Positions 15,856 through 27,955 of a DNA stretch of 64,000 nt are shown here, in pieces; position 1 is the first letter of the stretch, and every line of letters begins with the position of its first letter. Location of the stretch: positions 66,271 through 130,270 of the forward strand of contig CAVRUS010000012.1 in assembly GCA_963724415.1 (NCBI GenBank), read 5' to 3'. Made by a program: the position numbers and the translations under genes. The notes below the pieces were generated by a model. It had not been told where the DNA came from, made no database searches, and was given only the letters and a program-made list of their open reading frames with translations. The stretch is from an uncultured Actinomycetota bacterium (GTDB lineage Bacteria; Actinomycetota; UBA4738; HRBIN12).

Positions 15856-17445
15856 CTAGGAGACCTCGACAGAGATCGTGTGATGGCCGGTCGCGCCGTC
15901 CGGGAACGGAGGGACGCGGTCGGTGGTCTGCGTCGCACCGTCGCCGTCCGTCGCCCGGACCGCCAGGGTGTGCGGCCCGGATCTCGCGTTCCATCGGTAC
16001 ACCCACTGCCGCCACGTGTCGACGGTGTCCTCGGCCCCGAGCTCGGCACCCTCCCACGGGCCGTCGTCGACCCGCACCTCGACACGCTCGATACCACGAT
16101 GCTGCGCCCACGCGACCCCCGCCACGGGGACGACGCCGGGAGCGAGCGTCGCTCGGGAGGCTGGCGTGTCGATCCTCGATTGCGTCTTGACCGGTGCCTC
16201 CTTCGCCCAGCCCCGCTGGATCCAGTACGCGTCGTAGGCATCGAGCGTCGTGAGCTCGAGGTCGACCAGCCACTTCATGGCGGACACGTAGCCGTACAGG
16301 CCGGGCACGATCATCCGGACCGGGAACCCGTGCTCCAACGGGAGGGGCTCGCCGTTCATCGAGACGGCGAGCATCGCGTCCCGGCCGTCCAACACGACGG
16401 CGGTCGGCGTGCCGATCGTGAAGCCGTCGGCCGAGCGAGACACGATCTGCGACGCGTCGGGGTGCACCCCTGCATCCCGGAGGAGGTCCGCGAGCGGCGC
16501 GCCGACCCAGCGCGCGTTCCCCACGTAGCGCCCGCCGACCTCGTTCGAGACGCACGCGATCGTGACGTCGCGCTCGATCATCGGGCGAGCCAGGAGCTCG
16601 TCGAGATCGAGGGTGAGGTCTCGGTCGACCATCCCGTGCACCCGCAAAGTCCACGTCTCGGCATCGATCGCAGGGACGAACAGCGCCGTGTCGACGCGGT
16701 AGAAATCCGGGTTCGGCGTGAGGAACGGGCCGACGCCGGGCACCCCGAGGTCCGCGCCGGCCGGGGTCGGCGGCCCGGCGACCGCCGGTGGGGGGATCTG
16801 CACGGCGGCTCGCGAGTCCGCGGCGGTCGCTCGGCTGGTGAGGAGGCGTCCGAGACCGCCGGCCACGATGGTGACGCCCGCCGCAGCGAAGCCCGCCTGC
16901 AGGAACCGCCTCCGGTCGTAGCCCCGTATCGAGGGCTCCGGCGTTTCGTCAGAGATGTCGGCCGTTGGCAGTCCCGCCGCCTCCCGCAGCATCCGGTACG
17001 TCAACACGCCGACCGCTGCGCCGACGATCGACGGGATCGCGTCGATCAGATCGTTCGCGGGCCGGGTGACGGCGGCGGCCGCGCCGATCGCTCCGAGCAC
17101 CACGCAGGCGGCGATGCCGAGGCGTGGCCGCCGCCACGCCGCCGCTCCCACGATCGCGACGGCGATCGTGAGCACCACGCCGATCCCGATCAGGAGCGCG
17201 AGCTTGTCCTCCTCGCCGAACGTCCTGATCGCGAAGGACTTCAGCCACTCCGGGCTCGCGTCGACGACGGCGCCGCCCACGGCGACGATCGGTGACGATC
17301 CGGGCCCGAACACGGCCGCGAGCAGCTCCGCGACGCCGAGGGCCACGCCCGCGGCGAGCACCCCCACGACGGCGCCCGCGGCCCAGCGGGGACCGGGTGT
17401 GTCCCCGGCCTCGGCTCTTCCGCTCACTTCCTCGAGTGTGCCCAT
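15856..17445 (-). CDS. Membrane-anchored molybdopterin-dependent oxidoreductase (sulfite-oxidase / MsrP-YedY family).
   Basis: N-terminal multi-TM segment, Tat-like RRRFLQAGFAAAG, Moco-binding core (...CVSNEVGG...NARWVGAPLADLL...) and dimerisation-like C-terminal domain. Confidence 0.75.
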   Translation of the reverse strand: MGTLEEVSGRAEAGDTPGPRWAAGAVVGVLAAGVALGVAELLAAVFGPGSSPIVAVGGAVVDASPEWLKSFAIRTFGEEDKLALLIGIGVVLTIAVAIVGAAAWRRPRLGIAACVVLGAIGAAAAVTRPANDLIDAIPSIVGAAVGVLTYRMLREAAGLPTADISDETPEPSIRGYDRRRFLQAGFAAAGVTIVAGGLGRLLTSRATAADSRAAVQIPPPAVAGPPTPAGADLGVPGVGPFLTPNPDFYRVDTALFVPAIDAETWTLRVHGMVDRDLTLDLDELLARPMIERDVTIACVSNEVGGRYVGNARWVGAPLADLLRDAGVHPDASQIVSRSADGFTIGTPTAVVLDGRDAMLAVSMNGEPLPLEHGFPVRMIVPGLYGYVSAMKWLVDLELTTLDAYDAYWIQRGWAKEAPVKTQSRIDTPASRATLAPGVVPVAGVAWAQHRGIERVEVRVDDGPWEGAELGAEDTVDTWRQWVYRWNARSGPHTLAVRATDGDGATQTTDRVPPFPDGATGHHTISVEVS

Positions 17446-17530
17446 CTCCTGCGACGTTACGACTCCACGTGGTTTCCGTTCGAGATAGGCTCCTGCGAGC
17501 GTTCCCCCGACGACTCCAGGAGGACACCAG

Positions 17531-19094
17531 GATGTCTCGACGCCTCCTCGCCCTGAGCAGCGCGCTTGGGCTCATGCTCCTGCTCTTCACGCCCACGGCC
17601 GAGGCCACCCCGATCACCGTCAAGGTGATGACGCTGAACATCTTCTACGGCGGTGATGAGTGGAACCTCGACACGGGCCAGTGGTGCGCGGACGCCGCGG
17701 GCTGCCCCGAGACGATCGGGCACGTCGTCTCGGCGATCCAGGCGGCCGACCCCGACATCATCGGCTTCCAGGAGGGGACGGCCAACGAGTGCGTGATCGC
17801 GGATCGACTGGCGTGGTTCTGCGAGCCGCGGCTCCAGCTGATCTCGCGCTTCCCGCTCGTCGATCCTCCTGGCGCGAACGGCGCCTACGTGCTCGCCGAG
17901 GTGGCAACGGGACGGTTCGTCGCGGTCTCGAACGTGCACCTCCCGTCGGATCCGTATGGCCCGTACTGGGTGCGGGACGGCGAACCGCGAGCTGCGGTGC
18001 TCGAGCTGGAGCGAACCACGCGCCTCCCAGCGATCCAGCAGCAGCTCGACGTGCTCCCCGGCCTTGCCGACGACGGCATGCCTGTGTTCCTCACCGGCGA
18101 CTTCAACTCTCCCTCGCATCTCGACTGGACCCCCGCGGTCGACGCCGTCCGCGAAGAGGTGCGATATCCGGTCTCGTGGCCGGTCTCCGCGGCTCTCGCC
18201 GACGCGGGCTTCCGCGACTCGTACCGCGAGATCCACCCCGATCCCGTCGCCGTGCCCGGCTTCACCTGGACGCCGCCCGGCACCTTGGAGTCGGTGCCCG
18301 ACGAGGTCCACGATCGGATCGATTGGGTGCTCGTCCAGGGTCCTGCCGAGACGGTCGCGACGGAGCTGGTCGGCGAGGCCGGAGGGCCCGACGTGGACAT
18401 CGAGCGGGACCCGTATCCGACGGATCACCGCGGCGTGGTCTCCACCTTCCGCGTGGAGGCCGCCGACCTCCCCCCGTTCGCGGCGGTGGCCGCGCGCCGG
18501 GTCTTCGTGGGTGAGGACCTTGACGTCCGCGTGCACGGGCCCGCATCACGCGTCGTGCTCGTCCCGAAGGGGCAGGGGCCGGGCGCGGCCCTCGCCTCGC
18601 TCGCGGTGGGCGGCGCCGATGTCACCCTCACGTTCCCCACCGGTGCCGTGTCACCCGGCGCGTATCAGGCGCTCCTGCTGAACGCCGGCGACACGGTCCT
18701 GTCCCGAAGTCCGTTCTGGCTGTACGCGGCGGGGACCTCGCCACGGGTCCGGACGACGCAGGACGTCTACGAGGTGGGCGAGCCGATCCGGGTGCGCTGG
18801 CGAGCCGCCCCCGGGTACCGGTTCGACTGGATGGGGGTGTACGCCCCCGGCCGCGGCCCGGCGCAGAACGCGGAGGACTGCAACGCGGGGAGCTGCGGCA
18901 ACGGCCACTACCTCCTGTACCACTACACGGACACGCGGATCCAAGGGTCGGCGTTGCTCGGCCCCGACTCCTTCCCGGGATATCGCACCTGGCCGTTGAA
19001 GGTCGGGACCTACGAGATCCGGCTCCTGATGGACGACGGCTACCGCCTCCTGGCGATCTCCAACTCCTTCAAGATCGTGCACGCGTCGTCGTAG
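17531..19094 (+). CDS. Secreted endonuclease/exonuclease/phosphatase (EEP) family protein with a C-terminal beta-sandwich extension.
   Basis: CCAGGAGG RBS. Signal peptide. EEP motifs (VMTLNIFYGG...IGFQE...VSNVHL...FLTGDFNSPSH...DRIDWVL...TDHRGV). Confidence 0.75.
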
Positions 19095-19120: not shown

Positions 19121-19140
19121 GGGTTACGGTGGGCGCCGAG

Positions 19141-20030
19141 ATGTCTCCCGCCCTGCTCATCGTGCTCGGCGTGATCGCGCTCGTCGCGGTCGCGTACTTC
19201 GCCGGCCTCCGGCCGGCACCCGCCCGCGGCCGCAAGCCGACGCCCGGCATCCTCCGCCGCCGATCCAAGTGGCGGAAGGTCCTCCCCGTCATCCCGCTCC
19301 TCGGGGCCGTCGGGTGCCTCGTCTACGCGTTCAGCGGGTTCCGGTTCAACGTCGAGGAGACCGCGCCGGTGATCGTGCTCGTGATGGACGTGTCGAACTC
19401 GATGGATGCCACGGATGTCGAGCCGAACCGTCTCGTGGCGGCGGAAGATGCCGCGAACGCGTTCCTCGACGAGCTCCCCCCGGAGTTCCGGGTCGGTCTG
19501 GCGACCTTCGCGGGGGAGGCCACGCTCGATGGTCGACCCCACGCCAGGCCCGCGGAGAGGTCGTCGACGCGCTCGGCGGGACTCACCACCTCACGGGGAA
19601 CGGTGATCGGCGACGGGCTCACGGTCGCGCTCGACGTGATCGAGGAGATCCGGCTCGATGCGCCGGACACCCCCGCGGCCGCCCTGCTCCTGTCCGACGG
19701 CCGGGACACCGGGAGCCGAGGTACCCCCCGGCGAGGCCGCGGCGCGAGCCGGCTTCACTCGACGTTCCGGTGTTCACGGTCGTCGTCGGTCAGGTAGCCG
19801 AGGACGATGGTTCCGGTGCCGACCTCGACGCCATGGAAGCGATCGCCACCACGAGCGGCGGCGACACGTTCACCGCCGAGACGAGTGACGAGCTCACGAC
19901 GATCTACGCGGACCTCGGATCCGAGCTGTCGGTGGAGCTGGACGTCGAGCCGTCCACCACGCCTCTGGTGATCGCGGCGATCGCCCTGACCGTGCTCTCC
20001 GGGCTCATGCTCCTCTACGCTCCCCGCTGA
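19141..20030 (+). CDS. VWA-domain membrane protein (BatA-like), frame-shifted at least once and probably three times as assembled.
   Basis: N-terminal TM. MIDAS VLVMDVSNSMDA. GTVIGDGL and LLLSDGRDTG in frame 1. ARGEVVDALGG and the conserved C-terminus LDVPVFTVVVGQ...TGGDTFTAETSDELTTIYADLGSEL plus terminal TM are in frame 3 (ORF 19113..20030). Confidence 0.65.
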
Positions 20031-20116
20031 TCGCGCTCACCCGCCCGGTTCTCCTCGACCGGGATGGCCTCCTCGCCAGGCGTAGGAGACGACCAGCTGG
20101 GGTATCTCCCCATCGG

Positions 20117-21145
20117 ATGCGTGAATCGACACTCGACCCGACGTCCGCCACAGCCGGTGATCGGCTCCCGACTGCGCGCGGTCCCCTCAGCGAGGCGATA
20201 CTCGGCGTGCTCACGCAACGTGGTACGCCCGGATATCCGATCCCCGTGCCGGCGGATCCGTTGGGCGACGACGATCTCCATCTCGCCCTCGCCCTCGCCT
20301 ACGAGCTGTCGTACCGAGGCCTCCCGGGGGTCCGCGACGATCTGGAGTGGGATCCGGCGGTCCTGGGGATCCGGCGGGTTCTCGAAGACGCGTTCGAGGC
20401 CGGCCTGCGCCGTTTGATCCCTCGGGAGTACGTGGATCCTGCCGACGTTCCCGACCGGCTCCAGGAGATCGCCTCGCCGCCCGGTGAGGATTCGCTCTCC
20501 GCGTTCATCGAGCGTGCCGCCACGCTGGAGCAGGCCCGGGAGTTCCTGATCCACCGCTCCGCCTATCAGCTGAAGGAGGCCGATCCGCACTCCTGGGTGA
20601 TCCCACGTCTGGTGGGGGCGGCGAAGACGGCGGTCATGGAGATCCAGTACGACGAGTACGGCAGCGGCGACCCTGCCTGGATGCACGCGGAGCTGTTCCG
20701 GAACACGATGGTCGCCGCGGGTCTCGACGGGTCGTACGGGGCCTACCTCGGACAGCTGCCGGGGTCGACCCTTGCGACGATGAATGTGATCTCGCTCTTC
20801 GGGCTCCACCGCAGGCTGCGTGGCGCGCTCGTGGGTCATCTCGCCGCATTCGAGATGAGCTCGAGCCTGCCGAACCGCGCCTACGGTCGGGGGTTCCGCA
20901 GGCTCGGCTTCGACGATACGGCGACCCGATTCTTCGACGAGCACGTCGAGGCGGACTCGGTCCACGAGGTGCTCGCCTGCGACCTGGCCACCCTGTTGGC
21001 GACCCGTGAGCCCGAACTCGCGGGAGATGTCGTGTTCGGAGCGACCGCGATGGCGTTCCTCGAGGACCGTTTCGCCGACCGCCTGCTCGGCGGCTGGCAG
21101 TCCGGTGGCTCGGCGCTCCTGCTGGCGGCCGCAGCCGCGAGCTGA
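20117..21145 (+). CDS. Heme-oxygenase-like diiron enzyme ('iron-containing redox enzyme family', Haem_oxygenas_2 / HDO-type), tentative.
   Basis: All-helical, about 340 aa. Carboxylate/His-rich motif TAVMEIQYDEYGSGDPAWMHAELF plus downstream HLAAFE and EHVEADSVHE, as in CADD / SznF-type HDOs. Confidence 0.5.
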   Translation: MRESTLDPTSATAGDRLPTARGPLSEAILGVLTQRGTPGYPIPVPADPLGDDDLHLALALAYELSYRGLPGVRDDLEWDPAVLGIRRVLEDAFEAGLRRLIPREYVDPADVPDRLQEIASPPGEDSLSAFIERAATLEQAREFLIHRSAYQLKEADPHSWVIPRLVGAAKTAVMEIQYDEYGSGDPAWMHAELFRNTMVAAGLDGSYGAYLGQLPGSTLATMNVISLFGLHRRLRGALVGHLAAFEMSSSLPNRAYGRGFRRLGFDDTATRFFDEHVEADSVHEVLACDLATLLATREPELAGDVVFGATAMAFLEDRFADRLLGGWQSGGSALLLAAAAAS

Positions 21146-21150
21146 GCGCC

Positions 21151-22119
21151 GTGCTCTCCTACGTGCTCCCGTACCGGGGCGGATCCGCGGAGGAAGACGA
21201 TGGCGAGCTGGGGGACTATCTGGGATGGCTGTCCTCGAGGGTGGACCTGATCGTCGTGGACGGTTCCGATCCGGCCGCGTTCCAGGAGCACCACGACCGG
21301 TGGCCCTCTTCGGCCACGCACGTACCGCCCGACACGGACATCGTGTGCCGCAACGGGAAGGTGCGCGGGGTCCTGACGGGGATCCGCCGCGCCGTCCACG
21401 AGTCGGTCGTCATCGCGGATGACGACGTCCGCTACGACGACGCCACCCTCGCGACGATGCACGAGCTCCTGCGACATGCAGACCTGGTCCGACCGCAGAA
21501 CGTCTTCGATCCGCTCCCGTGGCACGCCCGATGGGATACGGCCCGGATGCTGCTGAACCGGTCGCTGGGAAGCGATCATCCGGGGACGTTGGGGGTCCGA
21601 CGGTCGTTCCTCGATCGGGTCGGCGGCTACGACGGGAACGTGCTCTTCGAGAACCTCGAGCTGGTCAGGACCGTCGCGGCCGCCGGGGGGCGCGTTGTGG
21701 ATGCCCCGGGGCTCTACATCCGCCGGCTCCCGCCGAGTGTCCCTCGGTTCCTGGAGCAGCGTCCCAGGCAGGCGTACGACGACCTGGCGCAGCCGCTCCG
21801 TCTCACCTTCTTCCTGGCCCTCGGGCCTGCGCTCGTCGCGATCGCTCGGCGTCGGCCACGTGTGCTCCTCGTCGGTGCCGCCGTCTCGGTGTTCGGCGCG
21901 GAGGTCGGCCGCAGGCGTCACGGAGGCGCGCACGTCTTCGACCGGCTCTCACCGTTGTTCGCCCCGGCATGGATCGCCGAACGTGCCTGTCTCGTCTGGC
22001 TCGCGGTGGCCTCGAGGTTCGGTCGGGGAGGCTCTGTCTACGCCGGACAGGTCATCCGCCGGTCGGCGAATCCGCCGCGCGTCCTCCGGCGGCGGCTGCG
22101 CGCACGGATCGGGGACTGA
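21151..22119 (+). CDS. Glycosyltransferase family 2-like protein.
   Basis: GTG start 5 nt after the upstream stop. LSYVLPYRGGS...VDLIVVDGSDP...IADDDVRYDD (DxD-like). C-terminal amphipathic / TM segment. Confidence 0.5.
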   Translation: MLSYVLPYRGGSAEEDDGELGDYLGWLSSRVDLIVVDGSDPAAFQEHHDRWPSSATHVPPDTDIVCRNGKVRGVLTGIRRAVHESVVIADDDVRYDDATLATMHELLRHADLVRPQNVFDPLPWHARWDTARMLLNRSLGSDHPGTLGVRRSFLDRVGGYDGNVLFENLELVRTVAAAGGRVVDAPGLYIRRLPPSVPRFLEQRPRQAYDDLAQPLRLTFFLALGPALVAIARRRPRVLLVGAAVSVFGAEVGRRRHGGAHVFDRLSPLFAPAWIAERACLVWLAVASRFGRGGSVYAGQVIRRSANPPRVLRRRLRARIGD

Positions 22120-22309
22120 ACGGCACGATCTTGTGGGTTCCGTCGCAGAAGGGTTGGGACGCCGATCGACCACAGCGGCAGATCGCGTTCACCCGCCGGC
22201 GGAGGGGCACCGTGTTCCCGCTCTCATCGAGCAGCTGGATCGGTCCCCGGACGAGCATCGGGCCATCGGCCGTGACCCGGACGACGCAGACTTCCTCGGC
22301 CCGGGTCAC
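22052..22309 (-). CDS. CDGSH-type iron-sulfur domain protein (mitoNEET-like).
   Basis: GPMLVRGPIQLLDESG...ICRCGRSASQPFCDGTHK. GTG at 22309 overlaps the stop of the upstream small gene (GTGA). Only the 3' 86 codons of the 166-aa track ORF look real. Confidence 0.7.
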   Translation of the reverse strand: MTRAEEVCVVRVTADGPMLVRGPIQLLDESGNTVPLRRRVNAICRCGRSASQPFCDGTHKIVPFSPRSVRAAAAGGRAADSPTGG

Positions 22310-22554
22310 GAGCCGCGCTTCCGGGCCGTCGCCTTGCCCCCCTTGCGGCCGGCCGCCTTCTTCTGGGCGGTCGTCCCGCCCTGTTTGGTCGTGTTGCGGC
22401 GGGTTCCCGAGCCCGAAGCCTTCCCTCCTCGCGAGGACGCTCCGGGCGAGTTCGCGATCCGCGCCGCCCGTTCCTTCGACATCCCCTTCTCCTTCAAGGC
22501 CTCGTACTGGTCTTCGTTCTTCACGCTCGGTCGCTTGTCCGGCATGCTCCACAC
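22306..22554 (-). CDS. Conserved small basic hydrophilic protein (actinobacterial small stress-type protein). Paralogous in its N-terminus to the 33337..33666 protein.
   Basis: MPDKRPSVKNEDQYEALKEKGMSKERAARIANS... followed by a Lys/Gly-rich tail. Confidence 0.55.
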   Translation of the reverse strand: MWSMPDKRPSVKNEDQYEALKEKGMSKERAARIANSPGASSRGGKASGSGTRRNTTKQGGTTAQKKAAGRKGGKATARKRGS

Positions 22555-22638: not shown

Positions 22639-23013
22639 TCAGCGCACCTGGACCTCACGCTCCGCACCGATCTGGTCGTCGATGCAGAACCGGGTTGCCG
22701 GTCGAACGGACAGCCGCTTGGGGTCGATCCGTGTACCGCACGCCTCGCACGTCCCGTAGCTCCCGTTCGCGAGACGTGCCTGCGCGTGCTCGATGTCGGT
22801 GAGCTGTCCGTCGATGTCGTTGATGATCGAGAGGTCCCGCGCACGTTCGAACATCTCCGATCCGGCATCGGCCACGTGGCCGCCGGCGGAAGGGTCTCCC
22901 GTGGGGTCTCGTTCGGTGTCTTCAGCGGTCTCCGTCAGGCTCGCACGGATCCCGCCCAGCCGAACCCGATCCTGCTCGAGCAACTTCGCGTACCGATCGT
23001 TCGTGCCGGACAT
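22639..23013 (-). CDS. DksA/TraR-family C4-type zinc-finger protein.
   Basis: ...IEHAQARLANGSYGTCEACGTRIDPKRLSVRPATRFCIDCQ-like four-Cys finger at the C-terminus. Coiled-coil N-terminus. Confidence 0.75.
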   Translation of the reverse strand: MSGTNDRYAKLLEQDRVRLGGIRASLTETAEDTERDPTGDPSAGGHVADAGSEMFERARDLSIINDIDGQLTDIEHAQARLANGSYGTCEACGTRIDPKRLSVRPATRFCIDDQIGAEREVQVR

Positions 23014-25384: not shown

Positions 25385-25925
25385 CTAGCTCGTGTGCGAG
25401 TGGGTCACCCGGTCATCCGTGTCGGAGTCGATGTCCGTGGATGCCGTCGACGCGGCGACCGTTCGCGTGGACGGGAAGAACCCGCCGATCAGCGCGAGCA
25501 CCCCACCCGCGAGCACGAACCAGAGGCCGATGCCAACGTCCTCGAGCGAGTCCAGCGATCCCGCGCGGCCCATCTGGATCACCGACGAGGGTGAACGCCA
25601 CGAGCGCGACTGCGCCGGCGAACCTCGTGAGCCAGCCGCCACGGAACGCGAGCCCGAGGATGATGACCGCTCCGCAGATCGCCGTCACGAGGCCGGCCGA
25701 CGAGAAGAACCCGGCGGTGCCCGCATCCGTCGACCAGAAGCTCTGTACGGCGAGCTCCGATCCGTCGGTGCCACTCACCCACGGGAGGAAGCTCCCGACC
25801 AACAGGAGCACGGCGGCGGCGACGGTGAGGATCACGCGGAGCGCGAGCCACGGAGAAGGAGCCTCGCTGACCGCCCGCGTCTCCGTCGACGTCGCATCCG
25901 CGTCGTGCTGTTGGATCGCACGCAT
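25385..25925 (-). CDS. Small four-TM membrane protein with an apparent frame switch near 25600.
   Basis: ORF 25413..25925 (WLALRVILTVAAAVLLLVGSFLPWV ... AVALVAFTLV) continues as a TM helix only in the frame of ORF 25385..25642 (VIQMGRAGSLDSLEDVGIGLWFVLAGGVLALIGGFFP). Confidence 0.45.
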
Positions 25926-26053
25926 ACCTGAACCTCCTTCTGCCTGGTCCGGCCGGCCGCGTTCAGCCGACCTCGGCTGGCAGACGCATACCCAGCGGGA
26001 ACGAGGTTCAACCCTCTGCGAACGGAGCCCTCACGAGGTGACGCACAGCAGGC

Positions 26054-26410
26054 TCATGCAGGGTGAGGCACGCGGATCCGGACGGTGGAGCCGACGGCGT
26101 CCGCTTCCGGGAACAGCGCTCGGATCAGGTCGAACCGCCCGGTCCATCCCTGGAGATCCGGTCCCTCCGTCTGGACCGGCACGTCCTCGGCTCGCAGCTC
26201 GATGCCGCGGTCGTCGGAGGAGAGCTCGAACGTCACGAGATCTCCGGTCTCCGCCTCGACGGCGCCCGAGAAGAGTTCCGATGCAGCTAGACGGAGGTCG
26301 TCTCGGACCGGCTCGGGAAGCTCCCACTGCTCGGTCACTGAGCCGATGAAGATGCGAACGATGAGCGCGAGAGCGGGATCGCCCGCGACGCTCAGCCGGG
26401 TGCTCGGCAC
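26054..26410 (-). CDS. RsbW/SpoIIAB-like anti-sigma factor paralog with a degenerate (kinase-dead) N-box.
   Basis: Aligns to the RsbW fold (DDLRLAASELFSGAVEA in place of D.I.DLKIAVSEACTNAVQHA). N and H of the N-box are absent. Confidence 0.45.
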   Translation of the reverse strand: MPSTRLSVAGDPALALIVRIFIGSVTEQWELPEPVRDDLRLAASELFSGAVEAETGDLVTFELSSDDRGIELRAEDVPVQTEGPDLQGWTGRFDLIRALFPEADAVGSTVRIRVPHPA

Positions 26411-26420
26411 GTCCTTCCCG

Positions 26421-26759
26421 TCAGTCCTGCGGGATCTCGTCGGTGCTCGTGTAGAGCGTGAGCACCCGGTCGAGACCGGTGAGATCCATCAACCGACGGA
26501 GACCCGATCCTTCGGGGGCGACCAGCGCGAGGTCCCCACCGCGCTCACGCAGGTGCTTGAGACACGCGACGATCGCTCCGAGACCGGACGAGTCGATGAA
26601 GCCGAGCCCACGGAAGTCCACGATGACCTTGGACGGCTCCGCGTCGCCTGCCTCGAGGACGGATTCCCGGAAGCTGGGAGCCGTGTAGAGGTCGAGTTCA
26701 CCGCTCACTTCGACGACGGCCCAACTCCCATGTGTGCGCCTGTCGAGGGTCAGATCCAC
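26421..26759 (-). CDS. STAS-domain anti-sigma-factor antagonist (RsbV / SpoIIAA-like).
   Basis: AGGAGG RBS 8 nt upstream of GTG at 26759. VVEVSGELDLYTAPSFRESV...VIVDFRGLGFIDSSGLGAIV (phosphorylatable Ser in DSSGLG). Confidence 0.8.
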   Translation of the reverse strand: MDLTLDRRTHGSWAVVEVSGELDLYTAPSFRESVLEAGDAEPSKVIVDFRGLGFIDSSGLGAIVACLKHLRERGGDLALVAPEGSGLRRLMDLTGLDRVLTLYTSTDEIPQD

Positions 26760-26816
26760 GGTGCAATCCTCCTGAGATCGGGGGCCGATGAGGCGCCAGT
26801 AGTATAGGTCGACATC

Positions 26817-27212
26817 GTGACGAACTTCCCGACGACAGTCTCCGTAGACGTGCCCGCGACGCCCGCGTTCGTCCAGGTGCTTCGGAACGTCGTGGCCGGG
26901 GTTGCCGCTCGTCTGGACATGCCGATCGACCAGATCGAGGACATCCGACTGGCCGTCACGGAGGCGTCGTCGTTGTTGCTCCGCGAAGGGGACCCGACGA
27001 CGCTCCGCATGGCGATCGGCCGGGACGAGGACACGCTCGATGTCACCCTCACCTCCGACGGCCGAGCGGATGCATGGCCGACGGAGCAGGTGATGGCCTC
27101 GTGGCCCTGGCTCGTCGTGAAGGGGCTCACCGACGAGATCCGTGCCGACCCGGGGGACGGCACGGGTCTGTCGATCGGCTTCACCAAGGGTCGTGAGCGT
27201 GTGGATCGGTGA
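26817..27212 (+). CDS. RsbW-like anti-sigma factor placed directly upstream of sigB-type sigma, but with N-box Asn/His replaced (predicted pseudo-kinase).
   Basis: DQIEDIRLAVTEASSLLLREGD aligns with B. subtilis RsbW DEIEDLKIAVSEACTNAVQHAY, with N->L and H->E. Stop overlaps the GTG of the sigma gene (GTGA). Confidence 0.6.
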   Translation: MTNFPTTVSVDVPATPAFVQVLRNVVAGVAARLDMPIDQIEDIRLAVTEASSLLLREGDPTTLRMAIGRDEDTLDVTLTSDGRADAWPTEQVMASWPWLVVKGLTDEIRADPGDGTGLSIGFTKGRERVDR

Positions 27213-27955
27213 GCGATCGCACCGGCCCGACCAGGTCCGAAGAGGAGATCGCCGAGCTCTTCCGGAAGCTGCCCGATGCGGGGGCGAGGGAGGCACTCGC
27301 GACGGAGTTCCTCCCGCTCGCCGAGTACTTCGCCCGCCGATTCTCGGGCAGAGGGGAGCCCGTCGACGACCTCACACAGACCGCGTCCCTCGGGCTGCTG
27401 AACGCGATCGATCGATTCGACCCCGAGCGAGGTGTGCCCTTCTCGACGTACGCGGCCGCCACGATCGTGGGCGAGCTGAAACGTCACTTCCGCGACCGAG
27501 GGTGGGCCTTGCGCGTGCCTCGGAACGTGCAGGAGACCGCGATCCTCGTGAACCGCACCGTGTCGACGATGTGGCAGGACCTCGGGCGCGCTCCGACGGT
27601 CGCGGAGATCGCGCGCGCGGCGGACATCGGTGAGGACGACGTCTTGCAGGCGCTCGATGCGCTGCAGGCCTACACGACGGACTCGCTCGATGCCCCGGTC
27701 GGCGACGCGTCCACGACCGCCGCGGAGTCGATCGGCAGCGAGGACCGGAGCTTCGAGGTGTCGGAGGACTGGCTGAGCGTGGCTCCGGCGCTCCGGGATC
27801 TCCCCGAACGGGAGCGGACGATCCTCTACCTGCGGTTCTTCGAAGGGAAGACCCAGACGGAGATCGCCGACGAGCTGGGGATCTCCCAGATGCACGTGTC
27901 CCGGCTCGTCTCCCAGGCATTGGAGAAGCTCCGGGAGCAGACCGGAGGAGTGTGA
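27209..27955 (+). CDS. SigB/SigF-type (group 3) sigma-70 family sigma factor.
   Basis: Regions 2, 3 and 4: DLTQTASLGLLNAIDRFDPERGVPFSTYAAATIVGELKRHFRD ... ERERTILYLRFFEGKTQTEIADELGISQMHVSRL. Confidence 0.9.
   Translation: MSDRTGPTRSEEEIAELFRKLPDAGAREALATEFLPLAEYFARRFSGRGEPVDDLTQTASLGLLNAIDRFDPERGVPFSTYAAATIVGELKRHFRDRGWALRVPRNVQETAILVNRTVSTMWQDLGRAPTVAEIARAADIGEDDVLQALDALQAYTTDSLDAPVGDASTTAAESIGSEDRSFEVSEDWLSVAPALRDLPERERTILYLRFFEGKTQTEIADELGISQMHVSRLVSQALEKLREQTGGV

Follow-up and report, generated by a model that had tools for sequence, protein, structure and literature searches.

Heme-oxygenase-like diiron oxidases/oxygenases (HDOs) with a known reaction number only about a dozen (2026 review), and large actinobacterial clusters of predicted N-oxygenases are still orphan (PMC7848743). 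SznF, of the streptozotocin pathway, N-hydroxylates N-omega-methyl-L-arginine, and its Glu189, located on an interrupted auxiliary helix (alpha-2), is the seventh metal ligand; this extra Glu has been used to tell predicted N-oxygenases from HDOs that cleave C-H or C-C bonds, such as UndA and BesC (PMC7848743). HrmI and BelK are L-lysine N6-oxygenases (6-nitronorleucine), and MboA and MboB (mangotoxin) are possibly the first dedicated pair of an HDO and its redox partner, reported in 2026 (PMC13185094). The YqcI/YcgG enzymes DcsA, AglA, GntA and ChmN are heme-dependent guanidine N-hydroxylases (PMC12866846). Here we compare with these systems a locus from an uncultured Actinomycetota bacterium, found within 64,000 nucleotides of contig CAVRUS010000012.1 (the window, G+C ~70%), in which an HDO gene is followed by a glycosyltransferase (GT) gene and a CDGSH-type iron-sulfur protein is encoded on the opposite strand.

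The three genes at the center of this analysis are the following.

20117–21145, plus strand: HDO, heme-oxygenase-like diiron oxidase/oxygenase, ATG start, 342 residues, PF14518 match
21151–22119, plus strand: GT, GT2/GT21-like glycosyltransferase, GTG start, 322 residues, PF13641 and PF13506 matches
22052–22309, minus strand: CDGSH-type [2Fe-2S] protein, ~85 residues, PF09360 match of 65.5 bits (cut-off 29.5), motif CRCGRSASQPFCDGTH

We found that the HDO and CDGSH genes form an invariant core and that the GT gene belongs to one of two alternative accessory sets. Our favored reading, which we hold with moderate confidence, is that the three genes constitute a stress-induced module, with the HDO as the N-oxygenase of an amine or guanidine, the CDGSH protein as its source of electrons and the GT as an enzyme of the same pathway. 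The module is widespread in soil actinobacteria. NCBIfam offers no usable name for any of the three proteins.

A predicted diiron oxidase with a SznF-type ligand set

The HDO translation contains the motifs EIQYDEYGSGDPAWMHAELF, HLAAFE and EHVEADSVHE, and its match to PF14518 (Haem_oxygenas_2, 'iron-containing redox enzyme') scores 192.7 bits (E 6e-57, cut-off 28.9). A phmmer search against the PDB matched only HDOs, with HrmI (E 1.4e-7) and SznF (E 4e-7) ahead of weak matches to RohS and BesC; identity is ~20% to HrmI and ~19–20% to SznF. In the phmmer alignment, HDO residues E154, E180, H190, E246, H276, D280 and H283 correspond to SznF E189, E215, H225, E281, H311, D315 and H318, the SznF chain numbering having been verified against Asp185, Glu189 and Met193 of the SznF structure paper (PMC7848743). 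The core three His and three carboxylates (E180, H190, E246, H276, D280 and H283) are present, and with E154 the predicted ligand set is of the 3-His/4-carboxylate, SznF type. All seven residues are invariant across 17 HDO relatives with 64–86% identity and are kept in 80–97% of 108 full-length representatives with 38–60% identity; E154 itself is retained in 103 of the 108. The sequence around E154 reads L-K-E-A-D-P, compared with L-S-E-A-S-P in SznF. D156, two residues past E154, is found in 107 of the 108 representatives, and R147 and R164 are conserved too, a pattern that would suit a charged amino-acid-like substrate.

The AlphaFold2 model of the HDO is all-helical (predicted local distance difference test score, pLDDT, 83.5; predicted template modeling score, pTM, 0.86). 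Its helix 137–154 stops exactly at E154 and is followed by a short helix, 157–160, so that the HDO domain of SznF and the modeled window HDO share the PF14518 fold, the seven ligand positions and an extra Glu on an interrupted auxiliary helix. A Foldseek search of the PDB with this model puts HrmI at the top (E 4e-9, TM score 0.71 over ~325 columns), followed by SznF (E 1e-6), RohS (E 1e-5) and FlcD, with CADD (E ~1e-3), BesC (E 4e-3, TM score 0.45) and PolF weaker. The top 35 of the 50 matches listed are all HDOs; TenA and PqqC appear only at E > 0.02 with TM scores of ~0.5 or less, and a Pfam scan of the HDO gave no TENA_THI-4 or PqqC match. Sequence and model together place the protein in the HDO superfamily, as a new member, and not among the housekeeping TenA/PqqC type. 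The original prediction, made from the DNA alone, had proposed an all-helical HDO-class enzyme translationally coupled to a GT2 glycosyltransferase and had named TenA/PqqC membership as one outcome that would speak against it. The two open reading frames and the motifs it quoted are as it described them, and the search and model results agree with it on both the class and the all-helical fold.

HrmI and BelK are the best full-length matches in both sequence and structure and, like the window HDO, are stand-alone proteins (~340–360 residues). HrmI is described as a 3-His/3-carboxylate enzyme (2026 review), whereas the window HDO has the fourth, SznF-type carboxylate, and HrmI sits in a nonribosomal peptide synthetase (NRPS) cluster, whereas the window HDO does not. 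Unlike SznF, whose chains are 450–490 residues long, the 342-residue window HDO has PF14518 as its sole Pfam match; it has neither the C-terminal cupin nor the N-terminal SznF domain, and no streptozotocin-type cluster surrounds it.

The downstream glycosyltransferase

The GT matches PF13641 with 30.6 bits (cut-off 27) and PF13506 with 25.7 bits (cut-off 21.7), scores that are weak and above the curated cut-offs. Among 18 aligned relatives, all match GT21, 16 match PF13641 and 15 match PF00535, in keeping with the earlier proposal of a GT2-like second gene. Members of the family are ~325 residues long, share the motifs YVLPxR, VVDGS, NGKVxG, ADDDVRY, RPQNxFDP, FENLEL and QRxRQAYDD, and are conserved to their final residues in the alignments. 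The window GT has VVDGS, NGK, ADDDVRY, FENLEL and QRPRQAYDD in its N-terminal GT-A-type region. D37 (VVDGS), D90 and D92 (ADDDVRY) and E167/E170 (FENLEL) are invariant in the closer alignment and kept in the more divergent one, and D91, within the D90-D91-D92 stretch, is conserved in at least 90% of sequences. The DXD metal/nucleotide-sugar motif and the conserved acidic residues are therefore present, and GT-A membership is predicted from these motifs together with the profile matches. Among solved structures the sole relative is 6yv7 (E 7e-4), whose deposited name is 'Glycosyl transferase, family 2'; it and the GT21 family resemble the GT in their GT21/GT2 Pfam matches and D...DDD...Q/RxxRx-like motifs, but the similarity between 6yv7 and the GT is very low. 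TIGR04283 was considered as an identity for the GT and dismissed (E 0.008, 15.7 bits against a cut-off of 182).

Hydropathy shows two or three moderately hydrophobic segments in the C-terminal part of the GT, including ~217–233 and ~270–290, which suggest that the protein is membrane-associated. These segments, together with the likeness to GT21 and 6yv7, would fit an alternative in which the HDO attacks a lipid or glycan by C-H or C-C cleavage of the UndA or BesC type, with the GT then assembling or decorating a glycolipid; indeed, HDOs such as UndA act on fatty acids (2026 review). We consider this improbable. E154 fills the site at which UndA binds the substrate carboxylate, a feature tied to N-oxygenases (PMC7848743), BesC is a poor structural match and the 50 Foldseek matches listed do not include UndA. 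Moreover, no lipid-metabolism genes co-occur with the locus, and the alternative partners of the GT, described below, are enzymes of guanidine chemistry. The modification of a lipid or glycan that the original prediction had envisaged thus finds no support, since the ligand set, the closest structures and the exchange of the HDO for YqcI/YcgG enzymes point to N-oxygenation of an amine or guanidine; of the two kinds of chemistry that it had offered for the class, the N-oxygenating type is favored and C-C cleavage of the UndA/BesC type is disfavored.

The HDO stop codon (TGA) and the GT start codon (GTG) are separated by 5 nt, and the gap contains no obvious ribosome-binding site. Overlaps occur at 42 of 66 co-directional HDO-to-GT junctions and measure 4 nt in 34 of these; at a further 9 junctions the gap is 0–10 nt. 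Because the junctions of relatives so often overlap, HDO and GT are probably translationally coupled in the window as well. One gene call carrying both HDO and GT Pfam domains (P0235) was examined as a natural fusion and rejected: it begins inside the HDO and diverges before the junction, so that a frameshift or read-through is its most likely origin.

The HDO–CDGSH core and its accessory genes

HDO relatives were sought in one genome per species and are encoded in at least 572 species genomes. The best 80 by similarity come from Actinomycetota metagenome-assembled genomes (65–76% identity) and from Thermoleophilia (53–61%). Together with eight loci from named actinomycetes these gave 88 HDO loci, many on truncated contigs, in which partner genes were located by tblastn thresholds and a simple gene caller based on G+C at third codon positions. 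A CDGSH gene lies within 3 kb of the HDO gene in 83 of the 88 loci, in several orientations. A methyltransferase gene is found in 42 loci, a ligase gene in 40 and the GT gene in 25, and GT and ligase never occur together. All 14 close relatives have the GT gene directly downstream of the HDO gene, as do 7 more distant loci; 3 further loci have it nearby in other arrangements, and the remaining loci of the best 80 have no GT within 8 kb.

In the loci that have no GT, a YbdK/GCS2-type carboxylate-amine ligase gene (PF04107) lies directly upstream of the HDO gene and co-directional with it, and beyond the ligase there is usually a HemK2-like N-methyltransferase gene. This second architecture, methyltransferase (minus), ligase (plus), HDO (plus) and CDGSH (minus), is found in 32 or more Thermoleophilia loci (L015–L080, e.g. 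L031, L043 and L079; also L083). One locus, L076, combines a methyltransferase with a GT; its GT appears frameshifted. In 16 loci the HDO–CDGSH pair has no accessory gene at all. Among named genera, Curtobacterium has the order HDO, CDGSH and Streptomyces the order methyltransferase, CDGSH, HDO, with HDO and CDGSH co-directional and overlapping by 4 nt; Kitasatospora has ligase, dimethylargininase and HDO, with CDGSH convergent; and Nonomuraea has HDO, CDGSH and GT. No YbdK ligase, N-methyltransferase or dimethylargininase gene is found anywhere in the 64-kb window. The presence of N-methyltransferases, and once of a dimethylargininase, beside HDO orthologs elsewhere is an echo of the methylarginine chemistry of SznF; the CDGSH and GT partners of the window HDO are not part of the Szn pathway.

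Since CDGSH is near-constant while GT and ligase alternate, the invariant core is HDO plus CDGSH, and the GT is a clade-specific accessory belonging to one of two alternative sets. The two-gene oxidase-plus-glycosyltransferase cassette of the original prediction therefore needs revision: it overlooked the CDGSH gene, the most constant partner of the HDO, and the GT that it paired with the HDO is absent from 63 of the 88 loci.

The CDGSH translation carries, in CRCGRSASQPFCDGTH, the cluster-binding pattern C-X-C-X2-(S/T)-X3-P-X-C-D-G-(S/A/T)-H. Its gene probably starts at the GTG at 22309 and converges with that of the GT in a 68-nt tail-to-tail overlap (22052–22119) in which the C termini of both proteins are conserved. 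Equally tight convergent packing of GT and CDGSH is seen in loci of the GT type elsewhere. Convergent transcription could couple the expression of the two genes. We infer that the CDGSH protein is the dedicated redox partner of the HDO and its electron donor. The arrangement resembles MboA–MboB, in which an HDO is likewise encoded with its own iron-sulfur redox protein. However, MboB is an NAD(P)H/flavin/Fe2S2 reductase, whereas the CDGSH protein is a [2Fe-2S] protein of ~80 residues that lacks a flavin domain and would have to receive its electrons from an upstream reductase; MboA, in turn, acts as a desaturase/acetylenase, whereas the window HDO is predicted to be of the N-oxygenase type.

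A heme N-hydroxylase family beside the same glycosyltransferase

As a reverse test, a GT alignment headed by the divergent sequence from Nonomuraea served as the seed of a metagenome scan, and the best 80 loci were analyzed. An HDO gene is present in 50 of them, directly upstream of the GT gene in 49 and downstream in 2, and 8 further, truncated loci contain only the CDGSH gene. The co-directional order CDGSH, HDO, GT is found in 10 metagenomic loci, and gene order varies (L019, L062, L084, L121 and L122). The conservation of the pairing elsewhere, whose absence the original prediction had named as the other outcome that would speak against it, is thus seen both in the close relatives and in the GT-seeded loci.

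Could the adjacency be without functional meaning, the synteny being merely inherited within one clade? The absence of a GT from most HDO loci is compatible with this, and the GT-positive close relatives could all share ancestry. Nevertheless, the pairing recurs at 43–57% GT identity in Thermoleophilia and Nonomuraea, in other gene orders and on other strands, and the HDO/CDGSH/GT trio persists while the flanking genes differ. The frequency of the HDO among independently seeded GT loci also speaks against chance, and the metagenomic loci are 50–70% identical, which argues against near-identical strains. We regard inherited synteny as a very improbable explanation.

Twelve HDO-negative GT loci have an adjacent YqcI/YcgG gene (PF08892, E 4e-56) and/or DUF1989 gene (PF09347, E 8e-51), and some add a Methyltransf_25 gene. 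YqcI/YcgG is found at the equivalent position beside GT orthologs in 11 metagenomic loci, and neither YqcI/YcgG nor DUF1989 is found in any of the 50 HDO-positive GT loci. The G+C content of the 12 loci ranges from 0.42 to 0.69, and judged by this they probably come from other phyla as well. GT, YqcI/YcgG and DUF1989, with or without Methyltransf_25, occur together on lower-G+C contigs (L104, L114, L119, L125, L139, L140, L149, L157, L165 and L167) and appear to be an undescribed guanidine N-hydroxylase cassette of other phyla. According to a passage of PMC11271267 that cites Schneider 2020, DUF1989 includes a carboxyguanidine deiminase.

Guanidine N-H hydroxylation, the reaction of the YqcI/YcgG enzymes, is the class of chemistry predicted for the window HDO. 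These enzymes differ from it in having another fold and a thiolate-ligated heme, and the window contains none of them. One GT family thus pairs with either of two unrelated N-hydroxylase folds. Of all the indirect evidence, this speaks most strongly for N-hydroxylation by the HDO and for a role of the GT in the same pathway; by analogy, that pathway plausibly involves guanidine-type chemistry. The 3-His/4-carboxylate set, the closest structures and this alternative pairing with heme guanidine N-hydroxylases together point to N-oxygenation of an amine or guanidine as the probable chemistry of the HDO. The HDO–GT coupling is frequent, not obligatory. A third type of N-oxygenase was not found beside the stand-alone GT genes of two Streptomyces-like loci (L094 and L095), where only stress proteins, a P450-like gene and obg/rpmA are present.

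A promoter-like element and stress regulators

A candidate regulatory element lies immediately upstream of the HDO gene.

20082–20105, plus strand: GTAGGA-N12-GGGTAT, a promoter-like element of the SigB/SigF type whose end is 11 nt upstream of the HDO ATG

This is the single match to the pattern in the 64-kb window, where 0.01 would be expected. Of 13 clade loci tested, 10 (L001, L003–L005, L007–L011) carry GGGTAY 15–17 nt ahead of the ATG, as does the window, and in L006, L012 and L013 it sits further upstream; its background frequency is 2.6% of random 120-nt windows. The SigB/SigF consensus is GTTT-N12-17-GGGTAT (Bacillus subtilis SigB, Mycobacterium tuberculosis SigF and Streptomyces coelicolor SigB), to which the element conforms in its GGGTAT -10 sequence and only partially in its -35 sequence. 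We take the element to be a putative promoter of the HDO gene. Because its -10 sequence ends 11 nt before the ATG, the mRNA would be near-leaderless. A scan for sigma-70 promoters found nothing.

A partner-switching module that could supply the corresponding sigma factor lies ~5 kb from the HDO and GT genes.

26054–26410, minus strand: HATPase_c_2 protein
26421–26840, minus strand: STAS antagonist
26817–27212, plus strand: RsbW-like anti-sigma factor, HATPase_c_2 and RsbW matches
27209–27955, plus strand: SigB/SigF/SigG-family sigma factor, TIGR02980 match of 262.2 bits (cut-off 234.35)

The module (26054–27955) is complete, and the end of the RsbW-like gene overlaps the start of the sigma factor gene. 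Similar regulators flank the Streptomyces and Kitasatospora HDO loci. The sigma factor is a candidate regulator acting at the promoter-like element, and stress control of the three-gene module is plausible. A second GGGTAT, at 25988–25993 on the minus strand, lies ~63 nt upstream of a membrane-protein open reading frame (25413–25925, minus strand) that is syntenic in the close clade, and may be another SigB/F-type promoter.

Two further genes lie upstream of CDGSH on its own strand.

22306–22554, minus strand: DUF7218 protein, PF23855 match of 58.8 bits, recurring beside the module in the close clade
22639–23013, minus strand: DksA/TraR-type zinc-finger protein, PF01258 and TIGR02890 matches, recurring in the close clade

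Because the DUF7218 stop codon overlaps the CDGSH start codon (GTGA), the two genes are probably co-transcribed. The DksA/TraR-type gene is likely the first gene of the minus-strand unit ending in CDGSH; whether it belongs to the module is uncertain. A terminator scan gave one terminator-like site, at 22365–22381 inside the DUF7218 gene, which is within chance expectation.

This stress context can also be read differently: HDO and CDGSH might form a redox or iron-homeostasis pair concerned with nitric oxide, peroxide or Fe-S damage, or the HDO might be a CADD-like self-sacrificing cofactor synthase, with the GT remodeling the envelope independently and the genes being only co-regulated, with no common metabolite. 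SigB/F/G sigma factors and RsbW-like, STAS, SpoIIE, CsbD, DksA-like and DUF7218 proteins in the neighborhoods would all fit such a role, as would the absence of transporter and scaffold-building genes. The HDO is 53–76% identical across orders and present in at least 572 species genomes, a distribution more like core physiology than specialized metabolism; moreover, the GT can stand alone and the HDO–CDGSH pair can do without any accessory gene. However, co-regulation alone hardly explains the 4-nt HDO/GT overlaps, nor does it account for the mutually exclusive pairing of the GT with a second, unrelated N-hydroxylase family. CADD is a far weaker structural match than the substrate-oxidizing N-oxygenases, and the accessory ligase, N-methyltransferase and dimethylargininase of other loci are small-molecule enzymes. 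On balance we judge a purely physiological role of this kind to be unlikely, while giving it more weight than either lipid chemistry or inherited synteny.

Flanking genes

Upstream of the HDO gene is a VWA/BatA-like gene (19129–20030, plus strand) with a frame change at ~19720–19755, beside a run of six C. The alignment with an intact homolog runs in frame 1 as far as 19752 and continues from there in frame 3 to 20027, so that the gene is either a pseudogene or affected by an assembly indel. Two further genes lie upstream.

15856–17445, minus strand: membrane-anchored molybdopterin oxidoreductase
17292–19094, plus strand: secreted endonuclease/exonuclease/phosphatase-family protein

Both are syntenic in the close clade and absent from distant HDO loci, and for this reason are probably unrelated to the module.

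Discussion

In the mechanism that we favor, a SigB/SigF-type sigma factor would drive a near-leaderless HDO–GT transcript under stress. The diferrous HDO, with two irons held by three His and four carboxylates, would activate O2 and oxygenate a nitrogen nucleophile, most likely a guanidino or amino group in a small molecule that resembles an amino acid. The convergently encoded 85-residue CDGSH protein would return electrons to the diiron site between turnovers, and the GT would either make a glycosylated substrate or glycosylate the N-oxygenated product. In other lineages the ligase and N-methyltransferase would replace the GT, perhaps, speculatively, as an alternative means of conjugation or masking.

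Several observations weigh against this three-component reading. The closest solved protein is only ~20% identical to the HDO, HDOs with identical ligands can catalyze different reactions (2026 review), and HrmI, the best structural match, is itself assigned three carboxylates and not four. The CDGSH gene is usually convergent and not co-transcribed, and in the AglA study a 2Fe-2S protein gave no support to that heme N-hydroxylase. The GT is missing from 63 of the 88 HDO loci and stands alone in a few full-length Streptomyces-like loci near obg (L094 and L095), and so it is not essential to the core function of the HDO; its AlphaFold2 model has a pLDDT of 44 and its Pfam scores are low. Finally, genes typical of classic biosynthetic clusters, such as those for transporters or NRPSs, are absent from the locus.

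In the literature searched, no paper was found that connects an HDO with CDGSH or with a carboxylate-amine ligase, and none that connects a GT with YqcI/YcgG or N-hydroxyarginine in this sense; glycosyltransferases and ferredoxin-type partners are both absent from the 2026 HDO review. Neither the conserved HDO–CDGSH core nor the form of it that includes the GT appears to have been described. More tentatively, and with less confidence than in the module itself, we raise the possibility of a hitherto undescribed stress-induced pathway in Actinobacteria, with the heme enzyme swapped in for the HDO in other phyla, in which a guanidino or amino compound would be N-hydroxylated and a dedicated GT2 with hydrophobic segments near its C terminus would take part, giving an N-oxygenated glycoconjugate or an envelope molecule that releases reactive nitrogen. 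The CDGSH proteins would then be the first dedicated small [2Fe-2S] donors to heme-oxygenase-like diiron enzymes.

The locus offers several handles on an orphan HDO clade. Its CDGSH partner is near-universal and of a type that differs from the MboB described in 2026, and the pairing of the GT with heme guanidine N-hydroxylases narrows the likely chemistry of the HDO. The putative stress-type promoter provides a third. If the proposed pathway is correct, bacterial CDGSH proteins would gain a biochemical role, as would an orphan HDO clade that is possibly among the largest.

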